From positions 1 through 62,495 of the IMG/VR virus record IMGVR_UViG_3300042140_000143: a DNA stretch of 62,495 nt. One strand, written 5' to 3'. Shown here piece by piece: positions 1 to 62,398 of the stretch (position 1 is the first letter of the stretch; the number at the start of each line of letters is the position of its first letter). This DNA is from a virus. Lineage: Duplodnaviria > Caudoviricetes. A model generated the notes under the pieces. That model had not been told where the DNA came from. It was given only the letters and a program-made list of their open reading frames with translations, and made no database searches. The position numbers were made by a program, and so were the translations under genes.

Positions 1-83
1 CAACGGATGCAGCGGACAGCGTATCAACGTCCTTTGGCATGGCTCGTCTCCTCATCGCTGCCGCTGATCCTGTGCGTTCTCAG
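1..83 (+). repeat. attC-like site A (truncated copy; full copy at 61946-62036)
   Basis: caacgg-ATGCAGCGG-AC...G-CCGCTGAT-cctgtgc-GTTCTCAG; identical to 61954-62036. Confidence 0.85.
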
Positions 84-188
84 TCAGAAAATCATGTCTT
101 ATACGATACGTTTTTGCCTTACCACCTTTGCGACAGCCCATCCTCCATCAACGCTTCACCCCGTGCCGTGAACCAATCGACCATGAGA

Positions 189-638
189 CTAAGCCACCTC
201 ATGTCCGTCTCCAGCAAAGCGGCGATAAATCGACAGAAGCCCTTCGCGGGCGCGGTCGGCGGCGCTGTTTGTTGAGTGTTCCAGAAGTCGTATCGCCGCA
301 CGCACGCAATCACGCTCTTCGTCGGTAAGCGCTGGCCTCGCGTAGAGCGGAGCGACATCCCAGTTCCATTCGTCGGCGGCAGCGCGAGCCTGCTCGTAGA
401 GCGAGTAGACCGCCGACGATTCGCTGCCATCGGCGGCGAAGGCTACCCATGCGACAGGCTGCGGCCTATCAGTTTCGCGTTTCGCGAAAGGTCGCAACCT
501 CTCAAGCAGGCTGGAGATATGCGGCCCGTCGTGCATTGCAACGTGGCCGACAACGGCAACGTATTCCAGTGCGTCAAACTCGGCTTCGGTGATGTTCATT
601 CCATATTCCAGAACGCGATCCCGGCGGGTTCTCGTCAC
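189..638 (-). CDS. Cassette protein with PVAW...PLY and LTDEER modules (Ead/Eaa-like phage accessory protein)
   Basis: 149-aa ORF with QPVAW, PLY and LTDEERD motifs shared with neighbouring cassette genes; start uncertain. Confidence 0.7.
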   Translation of the reverse strand: MTRTRRDRVLEYGMNITEAEFDALEYVAVVGHVAMHDGPHISSLLERLRPFAKRETDRPQPVAWVAFAADGSESSAVYSLYEQARAAADEWNWDVAPLYARPALTDEERDCVRAAIRLLEHSTNSAADRAREGLLSIYRRFAGDGHEVA

Positions 639-825
639 CGCTTTATCAGTGCGGTCGATGCCCGCCGGGATCGCTGTGTCATGTTTCGTAGCAAAAAAAC
701 TGCACCCACCGCCGCCCCGCGCTGCCTAAGAGCATGAAGCCCGTGAGCCGCGTGGCACGCAGCCGTTCAGCAGACCGCAGGGCGACGATGGGCCATCGCA
801 GCCCACGCATGGTGGATGCGTCAAG

Positions 826-928
826 ACCGGGTGGCGGGAATCGAACCCGCGCCTTCGCAATCTGGTTGGTACTGCCGGGCGTGGCCCGGTGATCCCGTTT
901 CGATGCGCTACCATTACGCTACACCCGG
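826..928 (-). ncRNA. tRNA-like RNA with an expanded 49-nt anticodon domain
   Basis: Acceptor stem CCGGGTG/CACCCGG, TA, D-arm GCGT-AATGGTA-GCGC, T-arm GCGGG-TTCGATT-CCCGC; no canonical 17-nt anticodon arm. Confidence 0.7.
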
Positions 929-937
929 ATACGTTTT

Positions 938-1028
938 GTGAGAACCAGCCGATGCAACGGACGGCCCTGCGTCGTCATGTGTCATGGTGAGTCCTCGCGT
1001 GGCCGCCGTTGATCTTCCGCGTTCTCAC
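938..1028 (+). repeat. attC-like site B
   Basis: GTGAGAAC-N6-ATGCAACGG-AC...G-CCGTTGAT-N7-GTTCTCAC. Confidence 0.88.
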
Positions 1029-1342
1029 TCAGATCTGGCGAGCAGTGCCGCCATAACATCCGACCGCATCCGGTCTACCTTTTTACCAGAAAGCCGCACT
1101 ATTTTTGCAGCGTAGGCAATCGCCTCCCGCTCCTCGTCGGTGAGCGTGGCGTCCATGGTCACTGTCACGTTGCCGTCGCATACCGACAGCGTGGCGTCCT
1201 GCTCTGCTATGCGGCGAATGGCTTTTTTGAGCCGCTCATTTTCGGCCCGCAGGTCGTACACCTCTTGCGGCGTCCAATCGGCATCGCAGCCGCACTCGGA
1301 TTCCGAATGGGCCGCACACTTGCATCCTTTGCCGTCAGCCAT
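1025..1342 (-). CDS. Cassette protein, Cys-rich N-terminus and LTDEER C-terminal module
   Basis: AAGGAG RBS upstream of ATG 1342; stop TGA lies in R' of attC-B. Confidence 0.8.
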   Translation of the reverse strand: MADGKGCKCAAHSESECGCDADWTPQEVYDLRAENERLKKAIRRIAEQDATLSVCDGNVTVTMDATLTDEEREAIAYAAKIVRLSGKKVDRMRSDVMAALLARSE

Positions 1343-1353
1343 GCTTGCTCCTT

Positions 1354-1405
1354 GTGAGAACCACGCGATGCAGCGGACGGAGCCGCTGATCGCTGGCGTT
1401 ATCAC
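1354..1405 (+). repeat. attC-like site C (minimal, 3-nt terminal loop)
   Basis: GTGAGAAC-cacgcg-ATGCAGCGG-AC-gga-G-CCGCTGAT-cgctggc-GTTATCAC. Confidence 0.88.
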
Positions 1406-1752
1406 TTCAATCGCTCCAGAACGCTCCGCAGCGTATCGGCAGCGACACGGGATCGTGTCACCGGCATCGACTCGCACTCATCAATGGCGACTGCAACGGC
1501 CGCCCGCTCCTCGTCGGTGAGCCTGCCCCACGACCGCAATCGCTCAATCTCGGCCGCCGCCTCATGGCAGTCGAAATAGTGATCCTCGTCATCGGTGCCG
1601 ATCATGTTGGCCCGCGTCTGCCGCAGGCGGGTCACAATATCGCCGGTGCCCTCGCCGGGTCGGCTTGCCGCTTTATCGGTGCGGTGCCTGTCGGCGTCTG
1701 TACGGGCTATCGCCGCCGGCACGGCGTCATGATTTGTGTCAGAAAAACTCAT
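1402..1752 (-). CDS. Cassette protein with EAAAEIERLR and LTDEER...LERL modules
   Basis: ORF ends in R' of attC-C; shared C-terminal motif. Confidence 0.75.
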   Translation of the reverse strand: MSFSDTNHDAVPAAIARTDADRHRTDKAASRPGEGTGDIVTRLRQTRANMIGTDDEDHYFDCHEAAAEIERLRSWGRLTDEERAAVAVAIDECESMPVTRSRVAADTLRSVLERLK

Positions 1753-1768
1753 GCGGTTTTCTTTCGCT

Positions 1769-1860
1769 CTGAGAACCACGCGATGCAGCGGACCCGCGAT
1801 GCCGCCGTCTGGCTGTGGTTTCGTCAGCGGTCGCGGGCCGCTGATCGCTGGCGTTCACTG
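1769..1860 (+). repeat. attC-like site D
   Basis: CTGAGAAC-cacgcg-ATGCAGCGG-AC...G-CCGCTGAT-cgctggc-GTTCACTG. Confidence 0.88.
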
Positions 1861-2202
1861 GCTACTCTGATTCAAGATTTCCGCTGCCGCCAGCCTCCAT
1901 CGCAATCTCGCGTTCTCTGCGTGGAGAGCATTCAACTCCATCTCCATGACCTTGTATGCCTCTTGTCGAGACACGCGATCGCAAGCCGTGCGAATCTCAT
2001 ACCACTCGTTCCACGCATACAGCGGGACGACCTTTCTAACTCTGTCGGCAAATCGCCCCCGCAATCCGTCAACCTCAACCTTGTCGCGGCACAGCGGCAT
2101 AATGCTGCCGATGCCGTCAACCTCAACGATGTATGCCGCAGGAGCGACGCCCGCCAGTGAACCACGCGATGCAGCGGACATCTCATCTACCTCTTTCGTC
2201 AT
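1855..2202 (-). CDS. Cassette protein (PAAY...VVPLY module)
   Basis: RBS (AGGAG) and ATG inside attC-E; stop in R' of attC-D. Confidence 0.8.
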   Translation of the reverse strand: MTKEVDEMSAASRGSLAGVAPAAYIVEVDGIGSIMPLCRDKVEVDGLRGRFADRVRKVVPLYAWNEWYEIRTACDRVSRQEAYKVMEMELNALHAENARLRWRLAAAEILNQSSQ

Positions 2203-2245
2203 GGTTGCTCCTGTGTTCGATGCCGCTGATCGCTGGCGTTCTCAG
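2155..2245 (+). repeat. attC-like site E
   Basis: CAGTGAAC-cacgcg-ATGCAGCGG-AC...G-CCGCTGAT-cgctggc-GTTCTCAG. Confidence 0.88.
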
Positions 2246-2553
2246 CCTAATCGTTCCAGCATCCTGCGCAGCGTATCAGCAGCCTTCCTGCTTCGATCCT
2301 TGTCGTCCGGCTTCAGATCGTCCCAGCCGACGCATAGCGTGTCTGCTGCCCACTGAATCGCGCCCAACTCCGCATCAGCAGGAGGCTCTTGCCGGTACAG
2401 CGGCACAACATCGACGGGGCCGCCGCCCGCCCATTCCTGCGCGTCATACGCTCGGATAGCGACGTAGACAATGCTGCCGCCGTGTTCGACCGCCCACGCC
2501 GCAGCGTGAGAACCAACGGATGCAGCGGACAGCGTATCAACGTCTTTCGGCAT
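2242..2553 (-). CDS. Cassette protein, paralog of 61658-61993
   Basis: MPKDVDTLSAASVGS N-terminus encoded by attC-F; ends LERLG. Confidence 0.8.
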   Translation of the reverse strand: MPKDVDTLSAASVGSHAAAWAVEHGGSIVYVAIRAYDAQEWAGGGPVDVVPLYRQEPPADAELGAIQWAADTLCVGWDDLKPDDKDRSRKAADTLRRMLERLG

Positions 2554-2596
2554 GGTTCGTCTCCTTATCGCTGCCGCTGATCCTGCGTGTTCTGTG
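2506..2596 (+). repeat. attC-like site F (near-identical to A)
   Basis: GTGAGAAC-caacgg-ATGCAGCGG-AC...G-CCGCTGAT-cctgcgt-GTTCTGTG. Confidence 0.88.
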
Positions 2597-2597
2597 G

Positions 2598-2852
2598 CTA
2601 CCAATCAATCTCTGGAGGGGCAGGAAGCGGCATCCAGTGGGTTGGCCAGTTGGGAACCGTCCACCCGTAAAGCGTGTCGATCCATTCGCCGTCTCGGCAG
2701 TAGCCGAAAACCACTCGCCCGCCAAGCCACGCCAGAACCACTTTGCCTGCGTCGGGCAGCCGCTTCGTCACCGGAATCCAACCATCCGGTGTCGCCGGAT
2801 AGTTCGCCACAGAACCACGCATTGGAGCAGACCCGTCAGCGTCCTGTGTCAT
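2598..2852 (-). CDS. Cassette protein, DUF551-like
   Basis: WIPVTKRLP...THWMPLPAPP signature; RBS and ATG within attC-G. Confidence 0.8.
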   Translation of the reverse strand: MTQDADGSAPMRGSVANYPATPDGWIPVTKRLPDAGKVVLAWLGGRVVFGYCRDGEWIDTLYGWTVPNWPTHWMPLPAPPEIDW

Positions 2853-2894
2853 ATCAACGTCTCCTCTCGGGCTGCTCAATGCAGCCGTTCTCAC
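2808..2894 (+). repeat. attC-like site G (divergent L boxes)
   Basis: CACAGAAC-cacgca-TTGGAGCAG-AC...G-CTGCTCAA-tgcagcc-GTTCTCAC; compensatory changes keep pairing and the extra G. Confidence 0.85.
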
Positions 2895-3074
2895 ATTCTG
2901 GAATCTCTAAATGCCCCCGCCCACCCGGTGCGCTACCCATTGTCTGGACGCATTCGTCTAGGGGCTCGCCTCCACCCGCGTAGGCCGGTGACTGCCGCTC
3001 TGCATTCCGCTTTATCAGTGCGGCGCTGGAGCCGGGTGGTGACGTTGTTTCACTCATAATACGGTTTGTCATGG

Positions 3075-3302
3075 TCACTTGTGCTGCGGCACCCTCGTTG
3101 GCTTGCCGGGATGGTCGATCCCGTACATGGGATTTCCCATCACCCGGACCTCGCTGGAATCGACATGGACGACGGCACCCGTGTCGAACTGGTGGACGAG
3201 CCAGACCGTGTTGATGCTGGGGCCGTAGTCGATGAGGAACAGGGCGTGCCCCTCGCCCAGAGGCGTCGTGACCCAGAGCGGCGGGTTGCACTGGTGGATC
3301 AT
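3075..3302 (-). CDS. Hypothetical phage protein
   Basis: 75-aa ORF translationally coupled to the upstream gene. Confidence 0.65.
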   Translation of the reverse strand: MIHQCNPPLWVTTPLGEGHALFLIDYGPSINTVWLVHQFDTGAVVHVDSSEVRVMGNPMYGIDHPGKPTRVPQHK

Positions 3303-3592
3303 GGCCTCTCCGCCAGGAACTCCGCCCGGCCCTGCACCATCACGGCGTTGACGAGCCCGGCCACCACGCCGCCGGCCACCAAGCAGGCAAGCAGCAGGGA
3401 GATGAGCCGGTTGGTGCGGCGCACCTGAGCCATCTTGGCCTCGTGGTGCAGCCGCCAGACCCGCCGTTCCTCCATGTGCTTGGCGAGGAGGGCGTCAACG
3501 GCGTCCCACTCAAAGGCACCGCGAGCCGGAGTGGGCATCCTTTCCCACTCCGGCAGCGCAGCCACGAGGCGGTCGAGGTCTTCGACGGTCAT
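3299..3592 (-). CDS. Hypothetical membrane protein
   Basis: ATGA overlap with ssb; C-terminal hydrophobic helix. Confidence 0.65.
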   Translation of the reverse strand: MTVEDLDRLVAALPEWERMPTPARGAFEWDAVDALLAKHMEERRVWRLHHEAKMAQVRRTNRLISLLLACLVAGGVVAGLVNAVMVQGRAEFLAERP

Positions 3593-3939
3593 GCGAACGG
3601 AATCTCGTCGTCACCCACGCTCACAGCCTCCCGCTTGGGCCACCGGAGGCTGACGCCCACCTCATTTGCCATCAGACGCAAGGAGAAGCCCTGTGTGCCG
3701 TCCTTCTTCTGGTACGTCTCCAGACCCATCCGGCCGGAAACGACCACTCTCTGGCCCTTCTGGAGCGTCTCCGAGCATGTCTCGGCCTGCTCGTCAAAAC
3801 AGACCACCTCCACCCACGTCGTCGGCCCCTCCTTCTTCTCCGTCGAGGCCACCGAGAAGGTCAGCATGGCCTTCCCGCTCTTGGTGATCCGAATCTCGTT
3901 CACCTTGCCCACATTGCCAGTCACGGTCGCTTCGATCAT
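3589..3939 (-). CDS. ssb: Single-stranded DNA-binding protein
   Basis: TGNVG...FSVA...KGQRVVVSGR OB-fold motifs; acidic DDEIPF tail; GAGG RBS. Confidence 0.92.
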   Translation of the reverse strand: MIEATVTGNVGKVNEIRITKSGKAMLTFSVASTEKKEGPTTWVEVVCFDEQAETCSETLQKGQRVVVSGRMGLETYQKKDGTQGFSLRLMANEVGVSLRWPKREAVSVGDDEIPFA

Positions 3940-3977
3940 CGGTTCCTCTCTCTCATTGGGATGCTGGACAGGCGGAC

Positions 3978-4005
3978 AGCATACGCCTGGACGGGCGTAT
4001 AGCAA
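3978..4005 (-). promoter_or_regulatory. Candidate sigma70 promoter overlapping a palindromic operator
   Basis: TTGCTA-N16-TATGCT on the - strand; ATACGCC-N6-GGCGTAT palindrome at 3981-4000. Confidence 0.5.
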
Positions 4006-4024
4006 CCCCCCTACAGGCGTGGGG

Positions 4025-4570
4025 TCAGTATTTTGCGCCTTTTGCGAGGTTGTCTTTTGCCCACAAGGGCTGAAGGTTTGCGTAGTGGAAACACGCGGCC
4101 TGCTCGGACGGGCGAGATAGGTCGAACGATGCGCACGGGCGAATGTGGTCGATGTGCCACATTCGGCGGTTCTCCCATGTCATTCCAGGGAGGAACTTCG
4201 ATTCGATGTGTGACCGAAGCGCGTCGTGAGAACACCCGACAAGCCGAAGAGCGGAAGCGGCCTTCCGCTCTCCGCACAAAACACGGCGCAGTCGCTTTCT
4301 CAGCCGCAGCATCATGTCAAAGCCAGGATCGTGCGCGCGCCGCAACTTGTCCGCTTCCCTCCGGTCCTTTCGGAGTTTGGCGGCATATTCTGGGTCGTCT
4401 GCCCGCCTGCGGCGGCGACGTTCATTCGCAGCCATCCTCTTCTCAGCCTCTCGCATGGCGTAGGCAGAGTCATGCCAAAGCCTGTACAGCCTGCGCTCCT
4501 TGTTTCGCCGGCGGCGGTCGCTTGCAGTCCGCCCCCGACGCTCGCCCCGCGTCATCCATTTTGGATTCAC
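4025..4570 (-). CDS. HNH-like endonuclease
   Basis: WHIDHIRPCASFDL...CFHYANLQPLWAKDNLAKG motif; basic N-terminus. Confidence 0.8.
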   Translation of the reverse strand: MNPKWMTRGERRGRTASDRRRRNKERRLYRLWHDSAYAMREAEKRMAANERRRRRRADDPEYAAKLRKDRREADKLRRAHDPGFDMMLRLRKRLRRVLCGERKAASALRLVGCSHDALRSHIESKFLPGMTWENRRMWHIDHIRPCASFDLSRPSEQAACFHYANLQPLWAKDNLAKGAKY

Positions 4571-4894
4571 AGCACGCCTCCGTGCGGGCAGGCTCCCGCG
4601 CCGACGATCCTCTGGATAGGCTCACCTATTGGTGGGGGTCAATGATTTTGGGAAACTTTTGGCGGGGGGAACGTAACTAGGTGCGTGCGGGCGTTGGGGG
4701 GCTCAGGGGTGGGCCATCTATATGCAGGCCCCGCCGCTGAAAGCAAGGCACCAATCCTTCACGCTGTCCGTCGATACCGTGAACCGACCCGCCGCGACCC
4801 GTTTTGATCGCGGTCCATCCGCTGCGGCGTCTGTTCTGTGTCGGAGCGACGACGACGGGTGATCGTCGTGCTACCGACGAGGAGCATGTGAACC

Positions 4895-5167
4895 ATGAAA
4901 ACGCTCGACGGGCGGCCCCTCGATGTCGAGATTCAGTACGGCAAGTTTGCGGTGTCGATCAACTCGGAGGCCGCCGAAGTCTGCCTTCACCTCCCGCAGT
5001 ACCCGTACCTGCACCGACTGTTCAAGAGCGACGATCTTGACCTGCTGTGTGCTGCGTTCACAGAGGCTTGCGGGCTGGTGGACGCGGGCTTTGACCTGCA
5101 ATCGGATGTGCTGCATTGGACGGGCCGTTCGTTCGCAGTCTGCCCGCTGTCTGCGGTTCGCCGCTGA
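4895..5167 (+). CDS. Hypothetical early protein
   Basis: GAGGAG RBS; flanked by the 15-bp repeat. Confidence 0.7.
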   Translation: MKTLDGRPLDVEIQYGKFAVSINSEAAEVCLHLPQYPYLHRLFKSDDLDLLCAAFTEACGLVDAGFDLQSDVLHWTGRSFAVCPLSAVRR

Positions 5168-5248
5168 TTTCCCCGTTGCGGGGTCCGTCTCTTGTCGGCG
5201 GCACGTTGCCGCCAGCCGTGTCCAGTACCCCACGAGGAGGATCGTTCC

Positions 5249-5431
5249 ATGTACGAGGTCGAAACGGCTGCGGTCACGATGGATTGCAACGACGTGTGGC
5301 AGTTCCGCACGGAGCGTGAGGCTCGGGCGTTCATCAACGAGCGTGCCGACGGCTCCCGCGTGTTCACGCTCCTCGACCCGGATGGCGAGGTCGTCGTGCG
5401 GTCTGCCTTCCCGGTGCTGATGGTGGCGTGA
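5249..5431 (+). CDS. Hypothetical early protein
   Basis: GAGGAGG RBS; ATG 5249. Confidence 0.7.
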   Translation: MYEVETAAVTMDCNDVWQFRTEREARAFINERADGSRVFTLLDPDGEVVVRSAFPVLMVA

Positions 5432-5536
5432 TTTGCCGCTGCGGAGTCTGGATGGTAGCGGCATCGGCTCGTGTCGGTGCCGCCTCCACCCGCACTTCGC
5501 GGGATGTGTTCGATGGTTCCACTGAGGAGACTTGCC

Positions 5537-5977
5537 ATGATTGCCCAGTTCTTGAAGTTCCTGTCCGCGACCGATGCGAAGGCCCACGCTGCCGCTGTCG
5601 CGGAATTGCAGACGATGGCCGTTCCCGCCCCCGTGAAGAAGCGGAAGGGCAATCCCGAAGCCCTCCGCAAGTGGCGGGAGTCGCAGAAGGCCGGGAAGCC
5701 CGCGACGGTCGTGTTCCCGAAGGCCGCGAAGAAGGCCGCCAAGCCCGCGAAGAAGGCCCGCAAGACGAAGGCGGTCAAGGCTGCGGCCGATGGTGCCACG
5801 CGATTCGGCGGGCTGGAGTGCCTGCCCTACGACGGCGGCGTGGTTCTCCGTCCCGCCGGGCGGCGTCGTGGCATCGGGTTCCGCGACTACGCGGAGTTCT
5901 GTGCGTTCGTGAACGCCTGCCGCACGGATGACGCCCACAAGGCCGGTGCCTTCATCAAGGCCCACCTCGCCCGCTGA
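5537..5977 (+). CDS. Basic Lys/Ala-rich protein (histone-H1-like tract)
   Basis: GAGGAG RBS; KAAKKAAKPAKKARK tract. Confidence 0.75.
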   Translation: MIAQFLKFLSATDAKAHAAAVAELQTMAVPAPVKKRKGNPEALRKWRESQKAGKPATVVFPKAAKKAAKPAKKARKTKAVKAAADGATRFGGLECLPYDGGVVLRPAGRRRGIGFRDYAEFCAFVNACRTDDAHKAGAFIKAHLAR

Positions 5978-6108
5978 TCGACCGCTGCGGCGTCTGGTTT
6001 GTGAGGGCCGACGACGGTTCGGGCAGGTTCGTAGCCTGCCCCCTCACTTCGCCCATCGCAACTTCGCGGTGGGCGTTTTTGTTTCCACGTTCCCATGAGG
6101 AGTCTGCC

Positions 6109-6342
6109 ATGAGCAATCCCGAAATCACCGCCGTTCGCAACAGTGAAAACCGCGTCGAGGCGGTCGTGTTTCCCGGCACGGGAGGTTTCTACTTCCTCGA
6201 CATGCGGAGTGCGGCCGAGCCCGTCGGTCCCTTCTCGTCCCGCGAGCGTGCGGCCGAGTCCGCCGACATCACGGTGGAGATCGACCGCGAGATCGACCGG
6301 CTGCTGACCCCGATGGTCGGCCGGGACCGCTGCCTGCGGTAA
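6109..6342 (+). CDS. Hypothetical early protein
   Basis: GAGGAG RBS; ATG 6109. Confidence 0.7.
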   Translation: MSNPEITAVRNSENRVEAVVFPGTGGFYFLDMRSAAEPVGPFSSRERAAESADITVEIDREIDRLLTPMVGRDRCLR

Positions 6343-6432
6343 ATCACCGCTGCGGCGTCTGAGTTTCACACTGCGAACGGGGCCAGTCGTCACGGTGGCG
6401 GCTGGCCCCGTCGCGTTTCACGAGGAGTGCCA

Positions 6433-6783
6433 ATGTACGAGCCGCTCGACAATACCGCCCCGCTCTGGCCCGACGAGTGCGACCACAACTCGCTCGACCC
6501 CACGTCATTCGTCGGCACGTTCAAGATGCTTCACGGGGAAGGCCGCCGCGAGTTGGTGGTGGACGTGTACGTGTTCGATGCGTTGGGTAACACGATGGCA
6601 CAGGGAATCTGCCTGCGGTACGGAACCGAACACCACTACTCCACCGTGCGGGTGAACCAGATGTTCGACCACCCAATCGGCATGGAGTACGACGGCGGGC
6701 TGTTTCGCTGCGCCCGCACGTTCCTGCTGTCGCGTGGCACGTTTCGCTGGCAACCGGAGACAGCGGCCAGCGAAGCCACCTAG
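6433..6783 (+). CDS. Hypothetical early protein
   Basis: GAGGAG RBS; ATG 6433. Confidence 0.7.
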   Translation: MYEPLDNTAPLWPDECDHNSLDPTSFVGTFKMLHGEGRRELVVDVYVFDALGNTMAQGICLRYGTEHHYSTVRVNQMFDHPIGMEYDGGLFRCARTFLLSRGTFRWQPETAASEAT

Positions 6784-6875
6784 TTCGCCCGGCGATTGCC
6801 CGCTGCGGAGTCTGTTCGGTAGTGGCCGGTCGCACTGTGTGGCTGGCCCGCTTTTCACCACGAGAGGAGTGCGTC

Positions 6876-7241
6876 ATGCACAAAGAGATCGCAGACCAAT
6901 GGGTCGCTGCACTGCGAAGCGACGAGTACGGGCAGACCTACGGGTATCTCCGCGAGGAGTACGAGCCCGGCAAGTTTGCCTACTGTGCGTTGGGCGTGCT
7001 ATGCGACCTGCACCGCAAGCACACGGGCGGCAAGTGGATAAATGTCGTCGGCGAGTACAGGTATCTCGGCCGCAAGGCCGAGTTGCCGGAAGCCGTCGCC
7101 GCGTGGGCGGGAACGTCCATAAATCCCGACGCCTTTTGCCGTGAGTTGGGAGGCTACGAGCCAATCTCGGAGATCAACGACGGCGGCATGTCGTTTCCGC
7201 ACCTCGCGGACTTGATCGAGGAGCAGTGGCAGACCGTGTGA
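6876..7241 (+). CDS. Phage protein of the WVAALRS...CALGVLC family
   Basis: GAGGAG RBS; paralog at 10044-10433. Confidence 0.75.
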   Translation: MHKEIADQWVAALRSDEYGQTYGYLREEYEPGKFAYCALGVLCDLHRKHTGGKWINVVGEYRYLGRKAELPEAVAAWAGTSINPDAFCRELGGYEPISEINDGGMSFPHLADLIEEQWQTV

Positions 7242-7321
7242 TTTGCCGCTGCGGAGTCTGTTTCTCGGCCGGCGGCACGTTGCCGTCGGCGGTCCCTTGT
7301 CCCTTGTTCTGAGGAGTTCCC

Positions 7322-7492
7322 ATGCGCACGCATGTCACCACCACCAACCCCCGCCTCATGCACTTCATCTCGCTTGCCAGCGTGGCACGCGAGGTGGGTG
7401 CGAAGTCGCAGCGTCACCTTCTGGCCGACCTCCGCACGCTCACCCATCGTGAGCGTCGTGAGGTGGCCGACCTCGTGAAGAAGGAGGGCTGA
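7322..7492 (+). CDS. Small hypothetical protein
   Basis: GAGGAG RBS; 56 aa. Confidence 0.55.
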   Translation: MRTHVTTTNPRLMHFISLASVAREVGAKSQRHLLADLRTLTHRERREVADLVKKEG

Positions 7493-7495
7493 TAC

Positions 7496-7717
7496 ATGCC
7501 GCACTTCTTGGTCGCACGCGACCGTGCCTACTGGGTGCGAGAGGTGATGCACATAGACGCCGCCACAGAGGAGGAGGCGGAGAACCAGTTCTACGAAACC
7601 TTCGACCCGGAACTGGAAATCGTCGGGCCGTTTCGTTTCGGCAACGCAACCCACGAAACCCCGCTCGAAGTGACTGCGTGCGAACCGCCGTCCCCTCCCG
7701 CTGCGGAGTCTGCGTGA
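7496..7717 (+). CDS. Hypothetical protein
   Basis: GGAGG RBS; 73 aa. Confidence 0.6.
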   Translation: MPHFLVARDRAYWVREVMHIDAATEEEAENQFYETFDPELEIVGPFRFGNATHETPLEVTACEPPSPPAAESA

Positions 7718-7833
7718 TGGGCAACAAGTGGGCCGATCAGCGGTAGGTCACCGCTGCGGCGTCTGGTTTCCGGCATGGGCCGTCCCGTTGTGGGGCGGCC
7801 CTTTCTTTTTCCCCCTTCACTGAGGAGTGAGGC

Positions 7834-9081
7834 ATGAGCGAGGACAACGAGGTCGAGTACGACTACTATGGGTTCGATGGCAACGGCATCCACCGTGACA
7901 CCGGCACGGAGTACGACCCCAACGGGTTCGATGCTGGCGGCATCCACAGCGTCACGGGCACCGAGTTCAGCAACACGACCCGCCGCACACGCGACGGCGA
8001 GCAGCGGGACTCGGAGGGCTACGACTACGGCGGCTACGACGAGGACGGGTACGACCGTGACGGGTACGACTCCGACGGGTACGACCACTGCGGCCACGAC
8101 CCCAGCGGCAACTCACGCTGCGAGAACGGCGAGTGCTACGACGACTCGTGCGAGTGCCACGAGTCCGACTTCGACTCGCAACTGGACGAGTACAGCACCC
8201 GTGCCCATCGCAAGCACACGTGGTCGGCGGACCCTGCTCTTGGCCCTTCGTACATGTACGCCGGGCACGAGATCGAGATGTACTCGGACGACGAGGACAT
8301 CGCGGACGTTGAGTACACGCTCGCCCAAGTGGACGGCCTGTACGCCAAACTCAACCCGCTGACTGGCAACGGCAGGTGTGCCATCGCCAAGCACGACGGC
8401 TCGCTGGAGGACAACGGGCCCGGCGGGTTTGAGTTGGTGACCGTGCCGCTCACGACCGAGCAGGTGTACGGCATCTTCGGGTCGTTCAAGACGCTGGGCA
8501 ACGGGCGCTGCTCCGCGTGGGACAAGGGCGACGACGTTGGGCACCACATCCACCTGTCGAAAGCAGCCGTCGGGCCGCTCACGCTGGGCAAGTTGCTCGT
8601 GTTCCTCAACGCCGAGCCGAACCGGAAGTTCCTTGAGTACATCGCCGGTCGGCCGGCGGGGTTCAACAAGTTCAGCCGCAAGAAGGTGACTGACCAAGAG
8701 AACCGCGACCGCTACGAGGTTCTCAACATCACCGACGAGACGGTCGAGTTCCGCCTGTTCAAGAGCAACCTGTACGGCAAGGCCATCCTCAAGAACCACG
8801 AGTTCGCGGTGGCTTCCGTGCGGTTCTGCGAGCAGGCGGCACACGGGTTCGGCGTGGTCGAGAACTCCACCGACCCGCTGCACTTCATCAACTTCCGCAG
8901 GTTCGTCGCCGCCAATCGCAGGACGTACCGTTACCTGCACGAGTTCATGCTCACCCACCCGGAGATTCGCGGCGGCTACTGCAACAACAGCGGCCTGCCT
9001 GAGAGCGTTGCCAAGCCGAAGGAACGCTCGCCCGTGTTCAACCTCGTCCGCACGTCCATGTCCGCCGTCACCGGTGCCTGA
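7834..9081 (+). CDS. Putative amidoligase (COOH-NH2 ligase type) with N-terminal GYD/GFD repeats
   Basis: GHEIE, HDGSL, GFELVT, HIH, RY..LN and TVEFR motifs. Confidence 0.78.
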   Translation: MSEDNEVEYDYYGFDGNGIHRDTGTEYDPNGFDAGGIHSVTGTEFSNTTRRTRDGEQRDSEGYDYGGYDEDGYDRDGYDSDGYDHCGHDPSGNSRCENGECYDDSCECHESDFDSQLDEYSTRAHRKHTWSADPALGPSYMYAGHEIEMYSDDEDIADVEYTLAQVDGLYAKLNPLTGNGRCAIAKHDGSLEDNGPGGFELVTVPLTTEQVYGIFGSFKTLGNGRCSAWDKGDDVGHHIHLSKAAVGPLTLGKLLVFLNAEPNRKFLEYIAGRPAGFNKFSRKKVTDQENRDRYEVLNITDETVEFRLFKSNLYGKAILKNHEFAVASVRFCEQAAHGFGVVENSTDPLHFINFRRFVAANRRTYRYLHEFMLTHPEIRGGYCNNSGLPESVAKPKERSPVFNLVRTSMSAVTGA

Positions 9082-9106
9082 CCCACCCCACTAAGGAGAC
9101 TTCCGC

Positions 9107-9955
9107 ATGTGCCTTGCCATCTACAAGCCCGCCACCACCCAGCCCGATTGGTCCGCCTACCGCAACGGCTTCGCCGTGAACGACGATTCGTGGGGGTTCG
9201 CCGTCGTCGTTGACGGCACGCTCGTCACCCGCTGCGGTATCGGCAACTTTGAGGAGTTCCGCGAAGCCTTCAGCCCGTACGCCGACCGACAGGCCATCAT
9301 CCACTTCCGATGGGCCACGCACGGCAAGAAGGACACGGGCAACTGCCACCCGTTCATGGTGAGCGACTCGCTCGCCGTGATCCACAACGGCGTGATCTCC
9401 ATCAAGTGCGACGTGGACAAGGATCGCAGTGACACTTGGCACTTCAACGAGTTGGTTCTCAAGCCGCTGCACGCTCGGGACGAGGACTTCTACCGCCGCA
9501 GCGAGGTGGTGTACACGCAGCAACTCGCCCACTCCGGCAGCAAGTTCGTGTTCCTGCGGGCGGACGGAGACTACTGCATCTGGAACGAGGACGATGGCGA
9601 CTGGTCGCGTGATGGTCACTGGTACAGCAACGACTCGCACGAGGGGTCGTACTACCGCAGCATCGGCTACGGCCTGACCTCTCGCACCACGACGGCCCCC
9701 AAGACCGAGCGTTCGTGGGTCGAGGTCGAGGACGGCAAGTGGAAGTACGTGGACGAGGACAACTCCGCGTCCGCCTGCCGCACAGCGTACGACCGCATGG
9801 CCGACGAGCAGGAGGAGGAGGACCGCGAGGATTCGTTCTACACCAACATGCGTGTGGATGACTTGCTCGCCTACGGGTTCAGTCGCAAGTGCTTGGCGGA
9901 AGTTCAGGACATGCTCGGCCACGACGGCATCGAGTTGCTGCACGACGCCATCTGA
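9107..9955 (+). CDS. Class II (Ntn) glutamine amidotransferase
   Basis: N-terminal MC, HFRWATHG, NCHPF, HNG, SDT. Confidence 0.88.
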   Translation: MCLAIYKPATTQPDWSAYRNGFAVNDDSWGFAVVVDGTLVTRCGIGNFEEFREAFSPYADRQAIIHFRWATHGKKDTGNCHPFMVSDSLAVIHNGVISIKCDVDKDRSDTWHFNELVLKPLHARDEDFYRRSEVVYTQQLAHSGSKFVFLRADGDYCIWNEDDGDWSRDGHWYSNDSHEGSYYRSIGYGLTSRTTTAPKTERSWVEVEDGKWKYVDEDNSASACRTAYDRMADEQEEEDREDSFYTNMRVDDLLAYGFSRKCLAEVQDMLGHDGIELLHDAI

Positions 9956-10043
9956 TTTCGCCGCTGCGGAGTCTGGTTCCTGCGGGGCCGGTGGCACTGG
10001 GTCACCGGCCCCGCTTTCTTTCTGACCAAGAGGAGTGTCTGAG

Positions 10044-10433
10044 ATGAAGCGAGACGTTATGGAGAAGTGGGTTGCCGCCCTGAGAAGCGGCGATTACATG
10101 CAGGGGTATGGCCGCCTGAAGCAAGCAGGTGGAAGCGAGCCATTGTTTTGCGCGCTCGGCGTCCTGTGCCAAGTGCATCACGACGAGACGCACTCGGCAT
10201 CGTGGTCACACCAGCCAATCAACGATTGCTGGTCTTACGGACGCTCGGCAATTCGGTCGTGCGACCGCGACAGGTATTCCGAGTGCCTGCCAACCTGTGT
10301 GATGGACTGGGCAGGCATCTCCTCCCCGAACGCACGACTGGATGCGACTCGCAGCGTCTCGTCCATCAACGACGACGGCAAGGACTTCTCCACCATTGCC
10401 GACGCCATCGAGGCTCGCTGGAAAGCCCTGTAA
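10044..10433 (+). CDS. Phage protein of the WVAALRS...CALGVLC family
   Basis: Paralog of 6876-7241. Confidence 0.75.
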   Translation: MKRDVMEKWVAALRSGDYMQGYGRLKQAGGSEPLFCALGVLCQVHHDETHSASWSHQPINDCWSYGRSAIRSCDRDRYSECLPTCVMDWAGISSPNARLDATRSVSSINDDGKDFSTIADAIEARWKAL

Positions 10434-10595
10434 TTCCCCGCTGCGGAGTCTGTCTATACGGCAAGCAAGGAGGCAAGCCATGCACCACTGGACCCATGCT
10501 GAAATCGAAATCTTCCTCGCCATGTGCTTCGTCGCCATGAAGGCGCTGGCACGGTGGGCGAAGTTGGACTGACCCCTCACACAAGGAGAGTGACT

Positions 10596-10922
10596 ATGGC
10601 TACCAAGACTCGTCGTCGCCTGCGTTTCCCCGTGACCGAGTTCATCGTCCAGCACAGCGAGGCTGCGGCGATGGGCCTGAAACTGCACGAGTTCGCCAAG
10701 CGGGCGGGACTCACGTACTCGGCCGTGACCATGCGGCTGCACGCCCTGCGGCAGCGTGGCGTCGTGCTGCCACGCCTCAAGCACGGGCTGCTCGGCAAGC
10801 CCGGCAATCGCAGCGGCAAGGGCACGGGCAAGATCGCCCGCTCTGTGGTCGTGGCCGCCGGGCGCACGGCCCGCATCACGAACCGGTCCAGCAAGTCCAT
10901 CACCATCACCATCGGAGGCTAA
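10596..10922 (+). CDS. Putative helix-turn-helix protein
   Basis: AAGGAG RBS; LHEFAKRAGLTYSAVTMRL. Confidence 0.6.
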   Translation: MATKTRRRLRFPVTEFIVQHSEAAAMGLKLHEFAKRAGLTYSAVTMRLHALRQRGVVLPRLKHGLLGKPGNRSGKGTGKIARSVVVAAGRTARITNRSSKSITITIGG

Positions 10923-10927
10923 TCACC

Positions 10928-11224
10928 ATGACAAAGTTCTGGAACGTGACAGTGCAACTTCACGATGACCGGCCGCAGGACGCCATGACGTTTGTGTTCG
11001 CTGATGAACGCCGCGCAAAGGCCATCATGAACCAATACTCGCGCCTGTTTCCGATGTACTTCTCTCTCGAAGTCAAGCCGTGTGACGCATGGGGGCGGGT
11101 CTGGCCGCAGCAGTATGTGTTTTGCAGCGTGTGCGGACAGCCGGAGATGGAGCCGGAGTTGTGCAGCCACGCCCGCAAGACGGACCACTGGTTTGCCTCA
11201 ATGGACGGAGGATCAAGGACATGA
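10928..11224 (+). CDS. Hypothetical protein with CxxC
   Basis: GGAGG RBS. Confidence 0.6.
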   Translation: MTKFWNVTVQLHDDRPQDAMTFVFADERRAKAIMNQYSRLFPMYFSLEVKPCDAWGRVWPQQYVFCSVCGQPEMEPELCSHARKTDHWFASMDGGSRT

Positions 11225-11439
11225 GTGCGTTCTGGTTTCACTACAACAAGCCCGCCTCTCAGGCGGCCGGGCACCCGGTGATGACAGTGCATCACAAGGG
11301 CGCCTGTCTCTTGGTCCGCAACGTGGTGTGTTCCGTCCCGGTGCGTAGCCGGGAGCGGAACTCACAGCCCCATGTCGTGATCGCCGGGCGCGGCAACGTC
11401 CGCATCGCAGGCGACACGGCTTACATCGAAGGAGAATGA
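11221..11439 (+). CDS. Hypothetical phage protein
   Basis: ATGA-coupled; FWFHYNKPAS motif. Confidence 0.65.
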   Translation: MSAFWFHYNKPASQAAGHPVMTVHHKGACLLVRNVVCSVPVRSRERNSQPHVVIAGRGNVRIAGDTAYIEGE

Positions 11440-11705
11440 CCATGCCATTTGCAGACGCCAGGTATCCGCGTGCCGCCAGCCGGCAGGTATCCACCTATAC
11501 GGGCCTTACTGCCCATGTCGTGCAACTCACCAACGGCGAGCGATTGCTCGTCGAGGAGAGCGAAGACGGCCTGAGTCTTGCCGTGTGCGTCCGGAACTCT
11601 GACGCCCCCGACCTGTGGGTCTGCCGCATCGAGGATGCCGGCGTGATGGCGCTCACCTACAGCGACGACGCATGCTCGCGTCTCGCAAGGAGGTCGTGTG
11701 CCTGA
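11436..11705 (+). CDS. Hypothetical protein
   Basis: ATGA-coupled ORF. Confidence 0.6.
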   Translation: MTMPFADARYPRAASRQVSTYTGLTAHVVQLTNGERLLVEESEDGLSLAVCVRNSDAPDLWVCRIEDAGVMALTYSDDACSRLARRSCA

Positions 11706-11988
11706 CCTGACCCCACGCGAGCGAGAGATTCTCACCCTCATCGCACGCTCGATTGACGCCAATGGATACCAGCCGTCGTACCGGGAGATCGCCGCCCACT
11801 TCGGGTGGACCGGACTTGGCTGGTTGCAGTACCTCGCCCGCAGGATTGCGAGCAAGGGGCACGCACGGGTGATCGGAGCCCGAGCGTGGTCGTTCGACTG
11901 GAAGTCTTACCTCAAGGAGCAGAAGCATGACGCTGAAAGAACTGATGGATCGCGTACTCGCCGTGTTCCCCGACGCCATGTTCGATGA
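11698..11988 (+). CDS. LexA-like winged-HTH DNA-binding protein (no peptidase domain)
   Basis: LTPREREIL...GYQPSYREIAAHFG resembles the LexA N-terminal domain. Confidence 0.75.
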   Translation: MPDLTPREREILTLIARSIDANGYQPSYREIAAHFGWTGLGWLQYLARRIASKGHARVIGARAWSFDWKSYLKEQKHDAERTDGSRTRRVPRRHVR

Positions 11989-12091
11989 GGCGCACGACGG
12001 CGAGGTGATCGTGTTCACGGGCAAGCGCGCCCACCCGGAGGAGGACTGGAACGAGGGGTCGCTCCAACTCCAGCCCATCCTTGACGACTAG
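11927..12091 (+). CDS. Small hypothetical protein
   Basis: AAGGAG RBS; MTLKELMDRVL... Confidence 0.5.
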   Translation: MTLKELMDRVLAVFPDAMFDEAHDGEVIVFTGKRAHPEEDWNEGSLQLQPILDD

Positions 12092-12110
12092 ACCTGTTCA
12101 TAAGTACACT
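12081..12110 (+). promoter_or_regulatory. Candidate sigma70 promoter
   Basis: TTGACG-N18-TACACT upstream of ATG 12128. Confidence 0.5.
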
Positions 12111-12127
12111 CCCACAGGAGAACGGGT

Positions 12128-12304
12128 ATGCCATACCCCACTACTACCGTGACACTCACACCCAGCGAGATCGACCTCATCATCACGGCCCTTCACGAAT
12201 CGGCGGAGGACCGCGAGGAGTTTGACGAGAGCGAGCAGGCGGCGGCCTTCGCCATCCTGCAACGGCGGTTCGTCAAGGCACAGACACAACTCATCGCTCA
12301 CTGA
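12128..12304 (+). CDS. Small hypothetical protein
   Basis: AGGAG RBS; 58 aa. Confidence 0.55.
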   Translation: MPYPTTTVTLTPSEIDLIITALHESAEDREEFDESEQAAAFAILQRRFVKAQTQLIAH

Positions 12305-12315
12305 AAGGAGCAACC

Positions 12316-13194
12316 ATGACCCCGACAACTCTTACCATCGGCGCTGGCTTGGGCGGCATCTGCCTGCTCAACACCAAGTCCGTGCTGCGTGACAGGCTGT
12401 TCGCCGCTGCGGATGCGGTGGGCTGCGGCCGTTTCGTTCCTGCCCAGCCGGCCCGCACGACCGTGCTGCGGGACTGCATGAAGCAGGTGGCCGACAACCT
12501 GTATGGCCGGCAGCGAAAGCGGCACAACGTGGTGCGGCAACTGGACGACCCGGCCTGCTTTGAAGTGGTGCGTGTGGTGCCCGGCCAGACGCAGAACGAC
12601 TACCAGTTCCTTTACTCCGCGACCATCGACTCGCACTGGGGCGTTGCCATCTTGGAGTACAGCACGAGCGGGCCGCCCGGCATGGCCGTGCTGCATGCCC
12701 TCGATCCCATGATCGTGCAGATGCGTGACTACCTTCCGTCCAGCGTGGTCGGCCAAGTGGTGGTCAAGATGCTGCGCTCGTGGCATGCAACGCCACTCAA
12801 GGACGACGGCGGTGCGTGGTTCCTGTCGGGCCAGCACCTTGACGACTACCGCCAGTTCGCCACGATGGTGCGCGGCCCCCACGCGGACGGCCCCCGCTTC
12901 CATGTCACCCAGTTTGAGATCGGCTCCGATCCCGACACGGTGATGCACGTCCTCGACCAACTCGGGCGGGAAGTCCAGGCTGGCATGGACGAGATCATGC
13001 AGGACGTGATGGAGGCCAGCGGCGGCATGTCCGACCGCTCCATCAACGTCCGTCTCGGAAGGGCCGACAAGTTTCTCGACAAGGTGCGGACCTACGAGCA
13101 GGTTCTCGGCAAGCCCATGCCCGACCTGACTGCTGCCATCGAGCAGGTCAAGCAGGCAGTGGCCGTCAATCGGCTGCTCGCTGCCGCCGTGTAG
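12316..13194 (+). CDS. Hypothetical protein upstream of the MoxR/VWA pair
   Basis: AAGGAG RBS; 292 aa; helical C-terminus. Confidence 0.75.
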   Translation: MTPTTLTIGAGLGGICLLNTKSVLRDRLFAAADAVGCGRFVPAQPARTTVLRDCMKQVADNLYGRQRKRHNVVRQLDDPACFEVVRVVPGQTQNDYQFLYSATIDSHWGVAILEYSTSGPPGMAVLHALDPMIVQMRDYLPSSVVGQVVVKMLRSWHATPLKDDGGAWFLSGQHLDDYRQFATMVRGPHADGPRFHVTQFEIGSDPDTVMHVLDQLGREVQAGMDEIMQDVMEASGGMSDRSINVRLGRADKFLDKVRTYEQVLGKPMPDLTAAIEQVKQAVAVNRLLAAAV

Positions 13195-13301
13195 TTTCCC
13201 CGCAGATTCACCGCTGCGGCGTCTGTTCGTTAGGGGAACGGGGTAGCATCGTGCTGCCCCGTCCCCTGCCCTATTGGTTCCCCACGAGGAGAGTCCCTCT
13301 C

Positions 13302-29092: not shown

Positions 29093-29749
29093 TCACGAAG
29101 CCGCCACCGGCTCCCGCTGTTCCTTCTTCTGGGCCGGCTTGGCGACCTTCGCCATGCAGTCCTTCGCCACGACGGCGATGCGTGCGGCCGACTCCTTCGA
29201 CAACTGCCCGCCCTCGACGCCCCTGTCGGTCTGGTCGAGAACGGCCTGCACGCCAGCCGCGTCCTTCGCAGCCCGCACCTTCGCCACCAGCGCCCGCTCG
29301 ATCTTCAACTCGTCGTTGACTGCGGACTCGACGGCGGCCTTCTGGGCGGTGTCGCCATCGTCCTCGTCCTCTGCCGCCACGCCGACGATGGCCGCCAACT
29401 CGACCCGCTTGAGGTAGGTCGCAGTGGCCGCCAACTGCTGCGGCTGGAGGGATGCCTTGATGGGCAGGAAGGAGCGGATGAACTGCCCGCTGGTGTGGCC
29501 CAGCGTCGTCACCAGCATGACGTAGTTCTCGTCATACGGAACGAAGCACTGGATCACGTCCAGGCCGTTCTCCGAGAGCGGCTTGCGGATCGTGTCGATC
29601 ACGGTCGCGAGGTCGGCGTACATGCCGAAGTGCGACTTGCTGGTGCGAGGGGCGTTCTTCATGGCCCCCAGCGCCTTGCTCTTGGCCTCAAACAGTTTGT
29701 CGAGTTGCGGGCTGCTAGCCGGCCACTCTGCAATCACGGATGTCATCAC
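29093..29749 (-). CDS. ERF-family single-strand annealing protein
   Basis: YADLATVID..RKPL..NGL...HTSGQ...TYLKR...EDEDDG. Confidence 0.85.
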   Translation of the reverse strand: MMTSVIAEWPASSPQLDKLFEAKSKALGAMKNAPRTSKSHFGMYADLATVIDTIRKPLSENGLDVIQCFVPYDENYVMLVTTLGHTSGQFIRSFLPIKASLQPQQLAATATYLKRVELAAIVGVAAEDEDDGDTAQKAAVESAVNDELKIERALVAKVRAAKDAAGVQAVLDQTDRGVEGGQLSKESAARIAVVAKDCMAKVAKPAQKKEQREPVAAS

Positions 29750-34966: not shown

Positions 34967-34967
34967 G

Positions 34968-36761: not shown

Positions 36762-36764
36762 GAT

Positions 36765-61663: not shown

Positions 61664-61993
61664 TAGCCGTTCCAGCAATCCCCGAAGCGCCACAGCGTCA
61701 GCCGCCGCAGCCTTGTCACCAAATAGTCTCGCGTCCTGCTCTGCCCCCTCCAGCGCCTCCCGAATCGCCGCTCGCTCCGCTGCCGTAAGGGTTGGAGGCG
61801 GCGTCAGGTACAGAGGCAGAATGTCCTGCTCGCTCCTGCCGTTGTGCCGTGCGCTTGCCTCTGCCCACTTTCGCTGTGGATGTACCGACACCGCCCGCGT
61901 GCGGCTGCTGACGAGTGCCGGATTGCCGACCGACCAAGCAACCGGCTGAGAACCAACGGATGCAGCGGACAGCGTATCAACGTCCTTTGGCAT
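61658..61993 (-). CDS. First cassette protein (PVAW...PLY and LT..ER...LERLG)
   Basis: RBS and ATG inside attC-A; stop in the GTTCTCA core at 61654. Confidence 0.8.
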   Translation of the reverse strand: MPKDVDTLSAASVGSQPVAWSVGNPALVSSRTRAVSVHPQRKWAEASARHNGRSEQDILPLYLTPPPTLTAAERAAIREALEGAEQDARLFGDKAAAADAVALRGLLERLG

Positions 61994-62036
61994 GGCTCGT
62001 CTCCTCATCGCTGCCGCTGATCCTGTGCGTTCTCAG
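61946..62036 (+). repeat. attC-like site A (full copy)
   Basis: CTGAGAAC-caacgg-ATGCAGCGG-AC...G-CCGCTGAT-cctgtgc-GTTCTCAG. Confidence 0.88.
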
Positions 62037-62044
62037 TCAGAAAA

Positions 62045-62290
62045 TCATGTCTTATACGATACGTTTTTTGTCGGCCCCGCCCCGCCTACATCAGTGACCG
62101 ACGCGGTGCGTGGGCCTTCGACGGGAGCAGGGCCGACGTTCGGGATGGCAAGCCGCATGGCGGCCTCAATCATTTGAGTGGCGCGGCCGTGCTCTGGCTG
62201 GTCGCAAACATCCATCAGAGTGTCGCGGTAGTCCTGCGCACAACTGACGCAGAACAGGATGGCCTCGCATTCTTCGGCGGTGAGTGTCAT
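62045..62290 (-). CDS. Alternative cassette protein
   Basis: MTLTAEECEAI...; ATGA-coupled to a 22-aa leader starting at 62355 inside attC-B'. Confidence 0.65.
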   Translation of the reverse strand: MTLTAEECEAILFCVSCAQDYRDTLMDVCDQPEHGRATQMIEAAMRLAIPNVGPAPVEGPRTASVTDVGGAGPTKNVSYKT

Positions 62291-62307
62291 GTTTTTTCGC
62301 AGAAAAA

Positions 62308-62398
62308 CTGAGAACCAGCCGATGCAACGGACGGCCATGCGTCGTCATGTGTCATGGTGAGTCCTCCGGTGGCCGCCGTTGATCTTCCGCGTTCTCAC
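62308..62398 (+). repeat. attC-like site B' (allele of B)
   Basis: Same as 939-1028 with 3 internal substitutions. Confidence 0.88.

Follow-up and report, generated by a model that had tools for sequence, protein, structure and literature searches.

In integrons, a gene cassette spans from the first T of one R' core to the G of the next R', and a cassette's own attC site is the one carried by its circular form, as set out in the account by Joss et al. (2009; PMC2674596). Arrays of this kind also occur in phages: in the report by Qi et al. (2023; PMC9892861), 17 clusters of attC sites lacking integron integrase (CALINs) were described in temperate and virulent phages without the integron integrase IntI, phage attC sites were recombined by IntI1, and a role in the traffic of accessory genes was proposed. 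The array studied here lies in the virus record IMGVR_UViG_3300042140_000143 of IMG/VR, which was analysed over its whole length of 62,495 bases (hereafter, the window), and it consists of small open reading frames (ORFs) separated by hairpin repeats that are very probably integron attC sites. The pairing rule for cassette ends is textbook knowledge and phage CALINs are already in print; what is unusual is the reversed design of the phage cassettes and the breadth of the attC family to which the repeats belong. As in the phage CALINs of that report, the array is made of attC-bounded cassettes without IntI. By contrast, the cassettes described there have the direction typical of bacterial arrays, whereas here the genes lie on the opposite strand, and a single attC family was found here in at least 117 IMG/VR contigs as against the 17 CALINs reported.

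The hairpin repeat, of ~80 nucleotides (nt), occurs on the plus strand in eight complete copies, one of them 42 nt long, and in one cut copy. Each cassette was taken to begin at the T of GTT in one R' and to end at the G of the GTT that follows, and pairing was measured as the contiguous complementarity between the GTT... at the start of a unit and the ...AAC at its end. An earlier note on this DNA had claimed that the R'' of a cassette usually matches the R' at its own start, quoting five matches and one exception, and all six were found where it had placed them. The pairs GTTCTGTGGC (2589) / GCCACAGAAC (2806) and GTTCTCAGCC (61654) / GGCTGAGAAC (61944) match over 10 of 10 nt, GTTCTCAGT (62029) / ACTGAGAAC (62307) over 9 of 9, and GTTCTCAC (1021) / GTGAGAAC (1354) over 8 of 8. 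For GTTCACTGG (1853) / CCAGTGAAC (2154), the place was right and the length was not, the match being 10 of 10 (GTTCACTGGC / GCCAGTGAAC, from 2153) instead of 9 of 9. In the exceptional cassette, GTTATCAC (1398) and CTGAGAAC (1769) pair only through GTT/AAC. The word "usually" holds for five of the eight cassettes, which pair beyond the consensus; in two others pairing is at the consensus level, and one is unpaired. The earlier note had not listed two cassettes (2238-2513 and the long unit 76-945), in which pairing corresponds to the family consensus GTTCTCA/TGAGAAC (7 nt).

Contiguous own-end matches in the eight cassettes of the window were 10, 9, 7, 8, 3, 10, 7 and 10 nt, and those between the two arms of the same hairpin 8, 7, 8, 3, 4, 4, 5 and 5 nt. 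In an exact permutation of the eight left against the eight right ends, the own-end sum of 64 compared with a mean of 47.75 (standard deviation 4.26; maximum 65), and only 96 of the 40,320 permutations reached that value. After exclusion of a near-duplicate unit, the sum for the seven remaining cassettes was 57 as compared with 40.9 (12 of 5,040 permutations). The signal within the window is carried mainly by four cassettes with ends that depart from the consensus, a weakness that is removed because a test on 321 cassettes outside the window gave the same outcome. Read on the gene strand, the two ends are unrelated codons (Gly-Ser-x on the N-terminal side and x-stop on the C-terminal side), and therefore coding cannot account for their pairing.

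The left arm of the hairpin was found in the IMG/VR contigs mentioned above and, on the bacterial side, in 90 stretches of genome contigs, which for the most part carry the labels Planctomycetota, Planctomycetia or Pirellulales. Among 321 non-redundant cassettes from phage and bacterial contigs, the window being excluded, own-end pairing had a mean of 7.04 nt and a median of 8 nt. Shuffled pairs had a mean of only 4.26 nt (standard deviation 0.06), and the best of 2,000 shuffles reached 4.52 nt. Pairing between the arms of the same hairpin had a mean of 4.63 nt (505 hairpins), and that between skip-one neighbours 4.53 nt (n = 205). The result was the same on both sides of the family: own-end pairing was 7.38 nt in 177 cassettes from viral loci, as compared with 4.80 nt after shuffling (maximum 5.21), and 6.61 nt in 144 cassettes from genome loci, as compared with 4.04 nt (maximum 4.33), the IntI-linked bacterial arrays pairing likewise. 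Own-end pairing is thus real and far beyond chance, and the comparison with shuffled pairings that the earlier note had suggested came out in its favour in the window and much more strongly across the homologous arrays.

The repeats also have the anatomy of attC sites. They were searched for with a structural template (AAC, 3 nt, 5 base pairs (bp), one bulge, 6 bp, loop, mirror arm, 4 nt and GTT, with at most two mismatches in the 11 bp), which in the window hit exactly the eight complete hairpins, in one orientation, and nothing else. Over the 1.71 Mb of fetched loci plus the window, 531 hits were obtained, as compared with 10 in block-shuffled copies. The AAC of R'' and the GTT of R' are both present in the eight complete sites of the window, and the R-box consensus is GAAC/GTTC, with a fourth base that departs from the classical RYYYAAC/GTTRRRY. 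The L boxes of the window come in four compensated versions (GCGAT..CAGCGG, CGGAT, CAACGG and GCATT..GAGCAG), and 57 viral and 72 genome L-box sequences were distinguished among the relatives, the L box being kept by structure rather than by sequence. The central spacer is unpaired (3 x 4 nt), and the terminal loop varies from 3 to about 45 nt. Two bulged bases, 7 nt apart on the R''-L'' arm, are left free by the template and are nevertheless G and A in ~93% of the sites, the counts for G being 228 of 246 in viral hairpins and 196 of 215 in genome hairpins, and those for A 228 of 246 and 201 of 215, respectively. In the description by Nivina et al. (2016; PMC5027507), attC sites have a central spacer that is unpaired, extrahelical bases in the L'' arm and a terminal structure that varies.

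In Planctomycetota genomes, arrays of the same attC family adjoin IntI genes that score 444-466 bits on the integron integrase model TIGR02249 (cut-off 265). One such gene, in a Pirellulales genome (G002:C6:716-1660; 465.5 bits), is followed by 13 template sites at 2072-13693, and another, in a second genome (locus L220, 3561-4469), by nine sites; IntI homologues were detected in at least 10 further fetched genome loci. In the Pirellulales locus (L219, G002:C6:1-20000), the first site after IntI has the arms GCGAT-G-CAGCGG / CCGCTGATCGC, as in hairpins H3-H5 of the window (Table 1). The chromosomal integrons of planctomycetes (Pirellulales metagenome-assembled genomes) share with the phage arrays the attC template, part of the L-box sequences and the own-end pairing, and differ from them in having IntI. 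The position of these arrays next to IntI is an association, compatible with use of this attC family by the integron integrase. In L219 and L220 intI has the same orientation as the cassette array, the layout known as "inverted integrase".

Homologous cassettes found in different contexts indicate which unit moves. Taking as informative those pairs in which one flanking hairpin was at least 85% conserved and the other was not, the top-strand 3' hairpin was kept together with the cassette body in 13 of 15 pairs. This is as expected of a cassette with the TT of one R' at its start and the G of the following R' at its end, and agrees with the circle joints proposed in the earlier note. Cassette content is also variable between close relatives. 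In seven phage contigs with structural genes 73-93% identical to those of the window, the arrays differ in the number and content of their cassettes, downstream of the same conserved gene. Two of them (L088 and L069) also contain the conserved gene that lies beyond the far end of the array, so that the whole locus is bounded, from which it follows that the array of the window runs across both contig ends. Indeed, the contig ends repeat array sequence (1-115 / 61954-62068 and 937-1126 / 62307-62495) around units X (62030-62391) and Y (77-1021), which are alternatives in one slot between near-identical attC copies. Since related phages show a continuous array, the record probably represents a circular or circularly permuted genome that is itself shorter by about 1 kb.

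Variation at the same locus was also detected in Logan contigs of four freshwater runs (X1, X7, X14 and X16) compared at 90% likeness. These contigs break or switch partner at R boxes (1400, 2241, 2243, 941, 2507 and 2811); the joints may belong to related phages of the same lakes, and are taken as evidence of heterogeneity and not as excision products. In three of the runs, unit X had a depth of 47, 21 and 7.5 where the phage core had 54, 22 and 11.5, and unit Y had 11, 10 and 0, respectively. These depths fit a circular genome in which the assembly walked past a polymorphic slot. Run X16, in which the joint of unit X and the core had no depth and unit Y had 7.6, has no bearing on this comparison.

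These results would be explained by movement of the units as integron cassettes. Each cassette would start at the TT of one R' core, comprise its gene and its own attC, and end at the G of the R' core that follows, and excision by an integron integrase would join the two ends into a circle. In the folded single-stranded attC of that circle, the cassette's own R'' would face the remainder of its own R', so that only cassettes with paired ends would be good substrates for the next insertion; own ends would stay complementary because such cassettes recombine well. An R box in the array, by contrast, would be a hybrid of two neighbours, paired over only about 4-5 nt. Own-end pairing follows directly from the fact that the attC of a cassette is that of its circular form, and it is the classical sequence signature of passage through such a form. 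The principle is the same as in the textbook rule of Joss et al. (2009; PMC2674596), here measured statistically, in a new attC family and in phage arrays. The crossover exactly between G and TT is a position taken from the literature, with which our data are compatible. Taken as a whole, it is likely that the repeats are attC sites, that the units between them are integron-type cassettes, and that these are moved via circles by the integron integrase of the host. The reading as integron cassettes put forward in the earlier note is thus supported by the pairing tests, the attC structure, the IntI-linked arrays and the 3' hairpins that travel with their cassettes. The original analyses of cassettes and attC sites were reportedly those of Hall, Stokes and colleagues.

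Several observations weigh against this explanation. In the window, three of the eight cassettes are not paired beyond the consensus, one of them not at all, and two of the 15 informative pairs keep the left hairpin instead of the 3' one, both of them involving one array that was sequenced twice. On the bottom strand, C and T occupy the bulged positions, as against the G and T given for attCaadA7 in one passage of Nivina et al. (2016; PMC5027507). Neither circles nor excision junctions were detected in the contigs of the freshwater runs, to which the search was confined. Nor was any cassette common to the phages (191 cassette bodies) and 12 IntI-linked bacterial loci; there was no tblastx match, and the sole blastn match was weak (79 nt, 76%), although a comparison with 12 bacterial loci says nothing against occasional exchange. 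Finally, IntI itself was missing from the phages: the TIGR02249 model gave no hit at E<=1 anywhere in the 62.5-kb record, none of five other large phage records with the attC family (four of them at least 90% complete) contained IntI, and tblastn with planctomycete IntI gave no match in the window or in any fetched viral locus. A complete integron, with intI, attI and a Pc promoter beside the array, was not found in the window. Because the phage has no IntI, the array is classed as a CALIN, that is, at least two attC sites in a row without a nearby IntI, a call made here from the structural template and the IntI model search, while the term itself was defined by IntegronFinder. For the same reason the recombining enzyme is most likely that of the host, probably a planctomycete with chromosomal integrons of the same attC family, a host to which the occurrence of this family points.

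The phage cassettes differ from the bacterial ones in the direction of their genes. According to calls based on a heuristic of ORF length and G+C content at the third codon position (GC3), the ORF lies on the bottom strand of attC in 141 of 176 viral cassettes (five top, 23 ambiguous and seven without a call), but in only 16 of 140 genome cassettes (79 top, 28 ambiguous and 17 without a call). In the window, five ORFs were called as bottom and one as ambiguous, out of six, and the canonical design, with a top-strand ORF that stops at or within R'' and has its expression driven from upstream, was not found. The planctomycete arrays are canonical, with the gene first and then R'', whereas the phage cassettes are reversed. 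In 128 of 246 viral hairpins, as compared with three of 215 genome hairpins, the loop contains a ribosome site and an ATG that opens a frame reading R'' as GGT TCN, and in the window the ORFs of cassettes C1, C5, C6 and C7 start in this manner, with leaders such as MPKDVDTLSAASVGS and MTKEVDEMSAASRGS. At the other end of the frame, the stop codon TGA is within the R' core. The DUF551 domain of C7 starts after the leader encoded by attC, which confirms one such reversed frame. With a crossover at R', the start signals and the gene would be in the same cassette.

A recombination site that aids translation of the adjacent cassette has a precedent in ORF-11 and ORF-18, for which the review PMC8876359 describes a translation start embedded in attI1 and coupling for the first cassette only. 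In both cases the recombination site supplies a ribosome site and a start codon. However, in the phages the start is located in the loop of the attC of each cassette, on the bottom strand, and translation of the attC arm gives the N-terminus of the protein (e.g., MTKEVDEMSAASRGS). Among open-access full texts, no account was found of cassette genes with a bottom-strand start in the loop of their own attC. As a side observation read by eye, the start in the H2 loop opens a frame of 22 codons through the attC arm (62354-62288, minus strand), whose TGA overlaps the ATG of the ORF of unit X (ATGA), a layout that suggests translational coupling in place of N-terminal fusion. Short attC sites of ~40 nt, of which H3 is an example, account for 56 of the 246 unique phage hairpins and for three of the 215 bacterial ones, and the cassettes behind them have their own ribosome site outside attC.

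Other explanations of the array were also considered. Modules could be shuffled by homologous recombination between the conserved ~80-nt hairpins, without any site-specific recombinase, a scheme that resembles the promoter/stem-loop modules proposed for T4-type phages. Such a process would be suited by the identity of 85-98% between hairpins of different cassettes over about 80-90 nt, by the genes for a PD-(D/E)XK nuclease and a helicase in the phage, and by the many alternative joins seen at hairpins in the contig graphs. Nevertheless, it gives no reason for outer ends that are complementary beyond the consensus, it does not predict a 3' hairpin that stays with the cassette body in 13 of 15 pairs, and the same pairing is found in IntI-linked bacterial arrays, so that we regard it as improbable. 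The cassette 1399-1853, which has lost its pairing, and the lack of IntI in the phage would be compatible with a fossil array, one that was acquired as a single block from an integron or CALIN of the host, is no longer mobile and has inherited its pairing. Such an origin does not fit with close phage relatives that differ in cassette content at the same locus, with a unit Y that is polymorphic within samples, with the absence of any cassette in common with the 12 IntI-linked loci, or with a phage design that bacterial arrays lack, as shown by the counts of bottom-strand ORFs and of starts in loops given above, and it appears even less probable.

The units could also be moved by a recombinase of the phage, as genes for a tyrosine and a serine recombinase are both present (Table 1). 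However, the attC family is the one that adjoins IntI in bacteria, and the tyrosine recombinase, encoded about 30 kb away from the array, does not match the IntI model, reaches only 17 bits on PF00589 and has no BLASTP similarity to planctomycete IntI; as for serine recombinases, they are not known to act on folded single strands. The participation of either enzyme is considered very improbable. The least probable explanation of all is a role at the RNA level only, in which the hairpins would be translation-start or processing elements and the ends would form a long-range pairing of the messenger RNA (mRNA) that brackets each cistron. Although the mRNA-sense hairpin does present a ribosome site and an AUG in its loop, 8-10 bp across about 300 nt make a weak RNA stem, the same pairing exists in bacterial arrays with genes on the other strand, and whole-unit differences between related phages would be left without explanation. 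A function of the hairpins in RNA may well coexist with recombination.

Movement as integron cassettes by the integrase of the host has consequences beyond this locus. The comparison of own-end with same-hairpin pairing provides a simple test, based on sequence only, for telling mobile cassette arrays from ordinary intergenic hairpin repeats. The presence of pairing in phages without an integrase of their own suggests that integron recombination exchanges small early genes, and that these are not dead copies. When the reversed design is also considered, this points to an integron gene pool on the phage side in freshwater Planctomycetota, which would extend the known reach of integrons beyond bacterial adaptation. 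We propose tentatively, with somewhat more doubt than conviction, that the phages infecting freshwater planctomycetes maintain a separate pool of back-to-front cassettes, reshuffled with the host IntI during infection. Each cassette would be self-sufficient for translation, with a ribosome site, a start codon and a neutral Ser/Ala/Gly leader provided by the attC loop and the stop codon by the R' core. If this were true, phage and host pools would use one recombination system and could not express each other's cargo, as their genes face opposite ways, and the pairing of ends would be a trace of active, circle-mediated exchange among phages.

The record comes from lake water, is classed as linear, with 64% G+C and 98% completeness according to CheckV, and has the appearance of a tailed phage; the array is located within the early region of its genome. 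No resembling record was found in the INPHARED collection (megablast of 30000-45000 and blastn of 1-3000). The features of the array and those of the genome around it are listed in Table 1.

Table 1. Coordinates of the array and of other features in the window; attC sites and cassettes are predictions, and the end matches are own-end pairings.
Feature	Position	Strand	Remarks
R' core opening C1	61654..61663	+	GTTCTCAGCC; pairs 10/10 with 61944-61953
Cassette C1	61655..62029	+	111-aa ORF 61993-61658 (-), start in attC loop
attC H1	61944..62037	+	R'' GGCTGAGAAC, R' GTTCTCAGT; structural scan, alignment, fold
Cassette X	62030..62391	+	81-aa ORF on minus strand; ends 9/9
DUF3800-VIII RNA in X	62071-62136	-	Rfam 61.5 bits; gathering score 40.2
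attC H2	62307..62398	+	R'' ACTGAGAAC, R' GTTCTCAC; structural scan
attC H1, second copy, cut by contig start	1..84	+	Window position 1 = 61954
Cassette Y	77..1021	+	Alternative occupant of X slot; 149-aa ORF 638-189 (-); ends 7 nt
DUF3800-VIII RNA in Y	711-786	-	Rfam 43.4 bits; gathering score 40.2
tRNA-like gene in Y	826-928	-	Rfam tRNA 52.3 bits; acceptor, D and T arms intact
attC H2'	938..1028	+	R'' GTGAGAAC, R' GTTCTCAC; alignment, structural scan
Cassette C3	1022..1398	+	105-aa ORF 1342-1025 (-), own ribosome site outside short attC; ends 8/8
attC H3, short form	1354..1405	+	42 nt from AAC to GTT; 3-nt loop; R' GTTATCAC
Cassette C4, exception	1399..1853	+	Ends GTTATCAC / CTGAGAAC, only GTT/AAC pair; 116-aa ORF 1752-1402 (-)
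attC H4	1769..1862	+	R'' CTGAGAAC, R' GTTCACTGGC; alignment, structural scan
Cassette C5	1854..2238	+	115-aa ORF 2202-1855 (-), start in H5 loop; ends 10/10
attC H5	2153..2247	+	R'' GCCAGTGAAC, R' GTTCTCAGCC; alignment, structural scan, fold
Cassette C6	2239..2589	+	103-aa ORF 2553-2242 (-), start in H6 loop; ends 7 nt (consensus level)
attC H6	2506..2598	+	R'' GTGAGAAC, R' GTTCTGTGGC; alignment, structural scan, fold
Cassette C7	2590..2887	+	84-aa ORF 2852-2598 (-), DUF551 protein; ends 10/10
attC H7, last of array	2806..2894	+	R'' GCCACAGAAC, R' GTTCTCAC; L box fully compensated relative to other sites
Serine recombinase	17048-17788	+	Resolvase N-terminal domain, E 2e-28
Helicase	27145-28713	-	
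PD-(D/E)XK nuclease	29746-30690	-	
Divergent tyrosine recombinase	30566-31504	+	PHROG 1 integrase, E 4.4e-14; PF00589 17 bits only
Portal	50406-52457	-	Weak matches

AAA and DUF2201 proteins are encoded on the plus strand of the record. The genes for the tyrosine and the serine recombinase are both far from the array. The former was rejected as a candidate IntI, having no NCBIfam match, no BLASTP similarity to planctomycete IntI and only weak matches to lambda-Int structures of the Protein Data Bank (PDB). Upstream of the R' core that opens C1 there are no attC arms, and a different, small palindrome is found at 61624-61650. At the other copy of the X/Y slot, H2 differs from the sequence at 938-1028 by three internal positions (62337, 62367 and 62368), and the two are identical from 62369 on.

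In unit Y, the ORF downstream of the DUF3800-VIII copy had no Pfam or PHROG match. The tRNA-like gene of the same unit has an anticodon region of 43 nt where the Rfam model has 11, and no tRNA was called by ARAGORN in the window, this gene included. A short frame that starts in the loop of H2' runs towards it. Regarding the cargo of the other cassettes, only the protein of C7 matched a family, and the rest had no match in Pfam or PHROGs. The ORFs of C1, C4 and C6, together with a minus-strand ORF just outside the array (61351-61560), have a common C-terminal module (LT..ER.A.I ... TLR.LLER, followed by G or K), and the cassette cargo appears to be in part a paralogous family.

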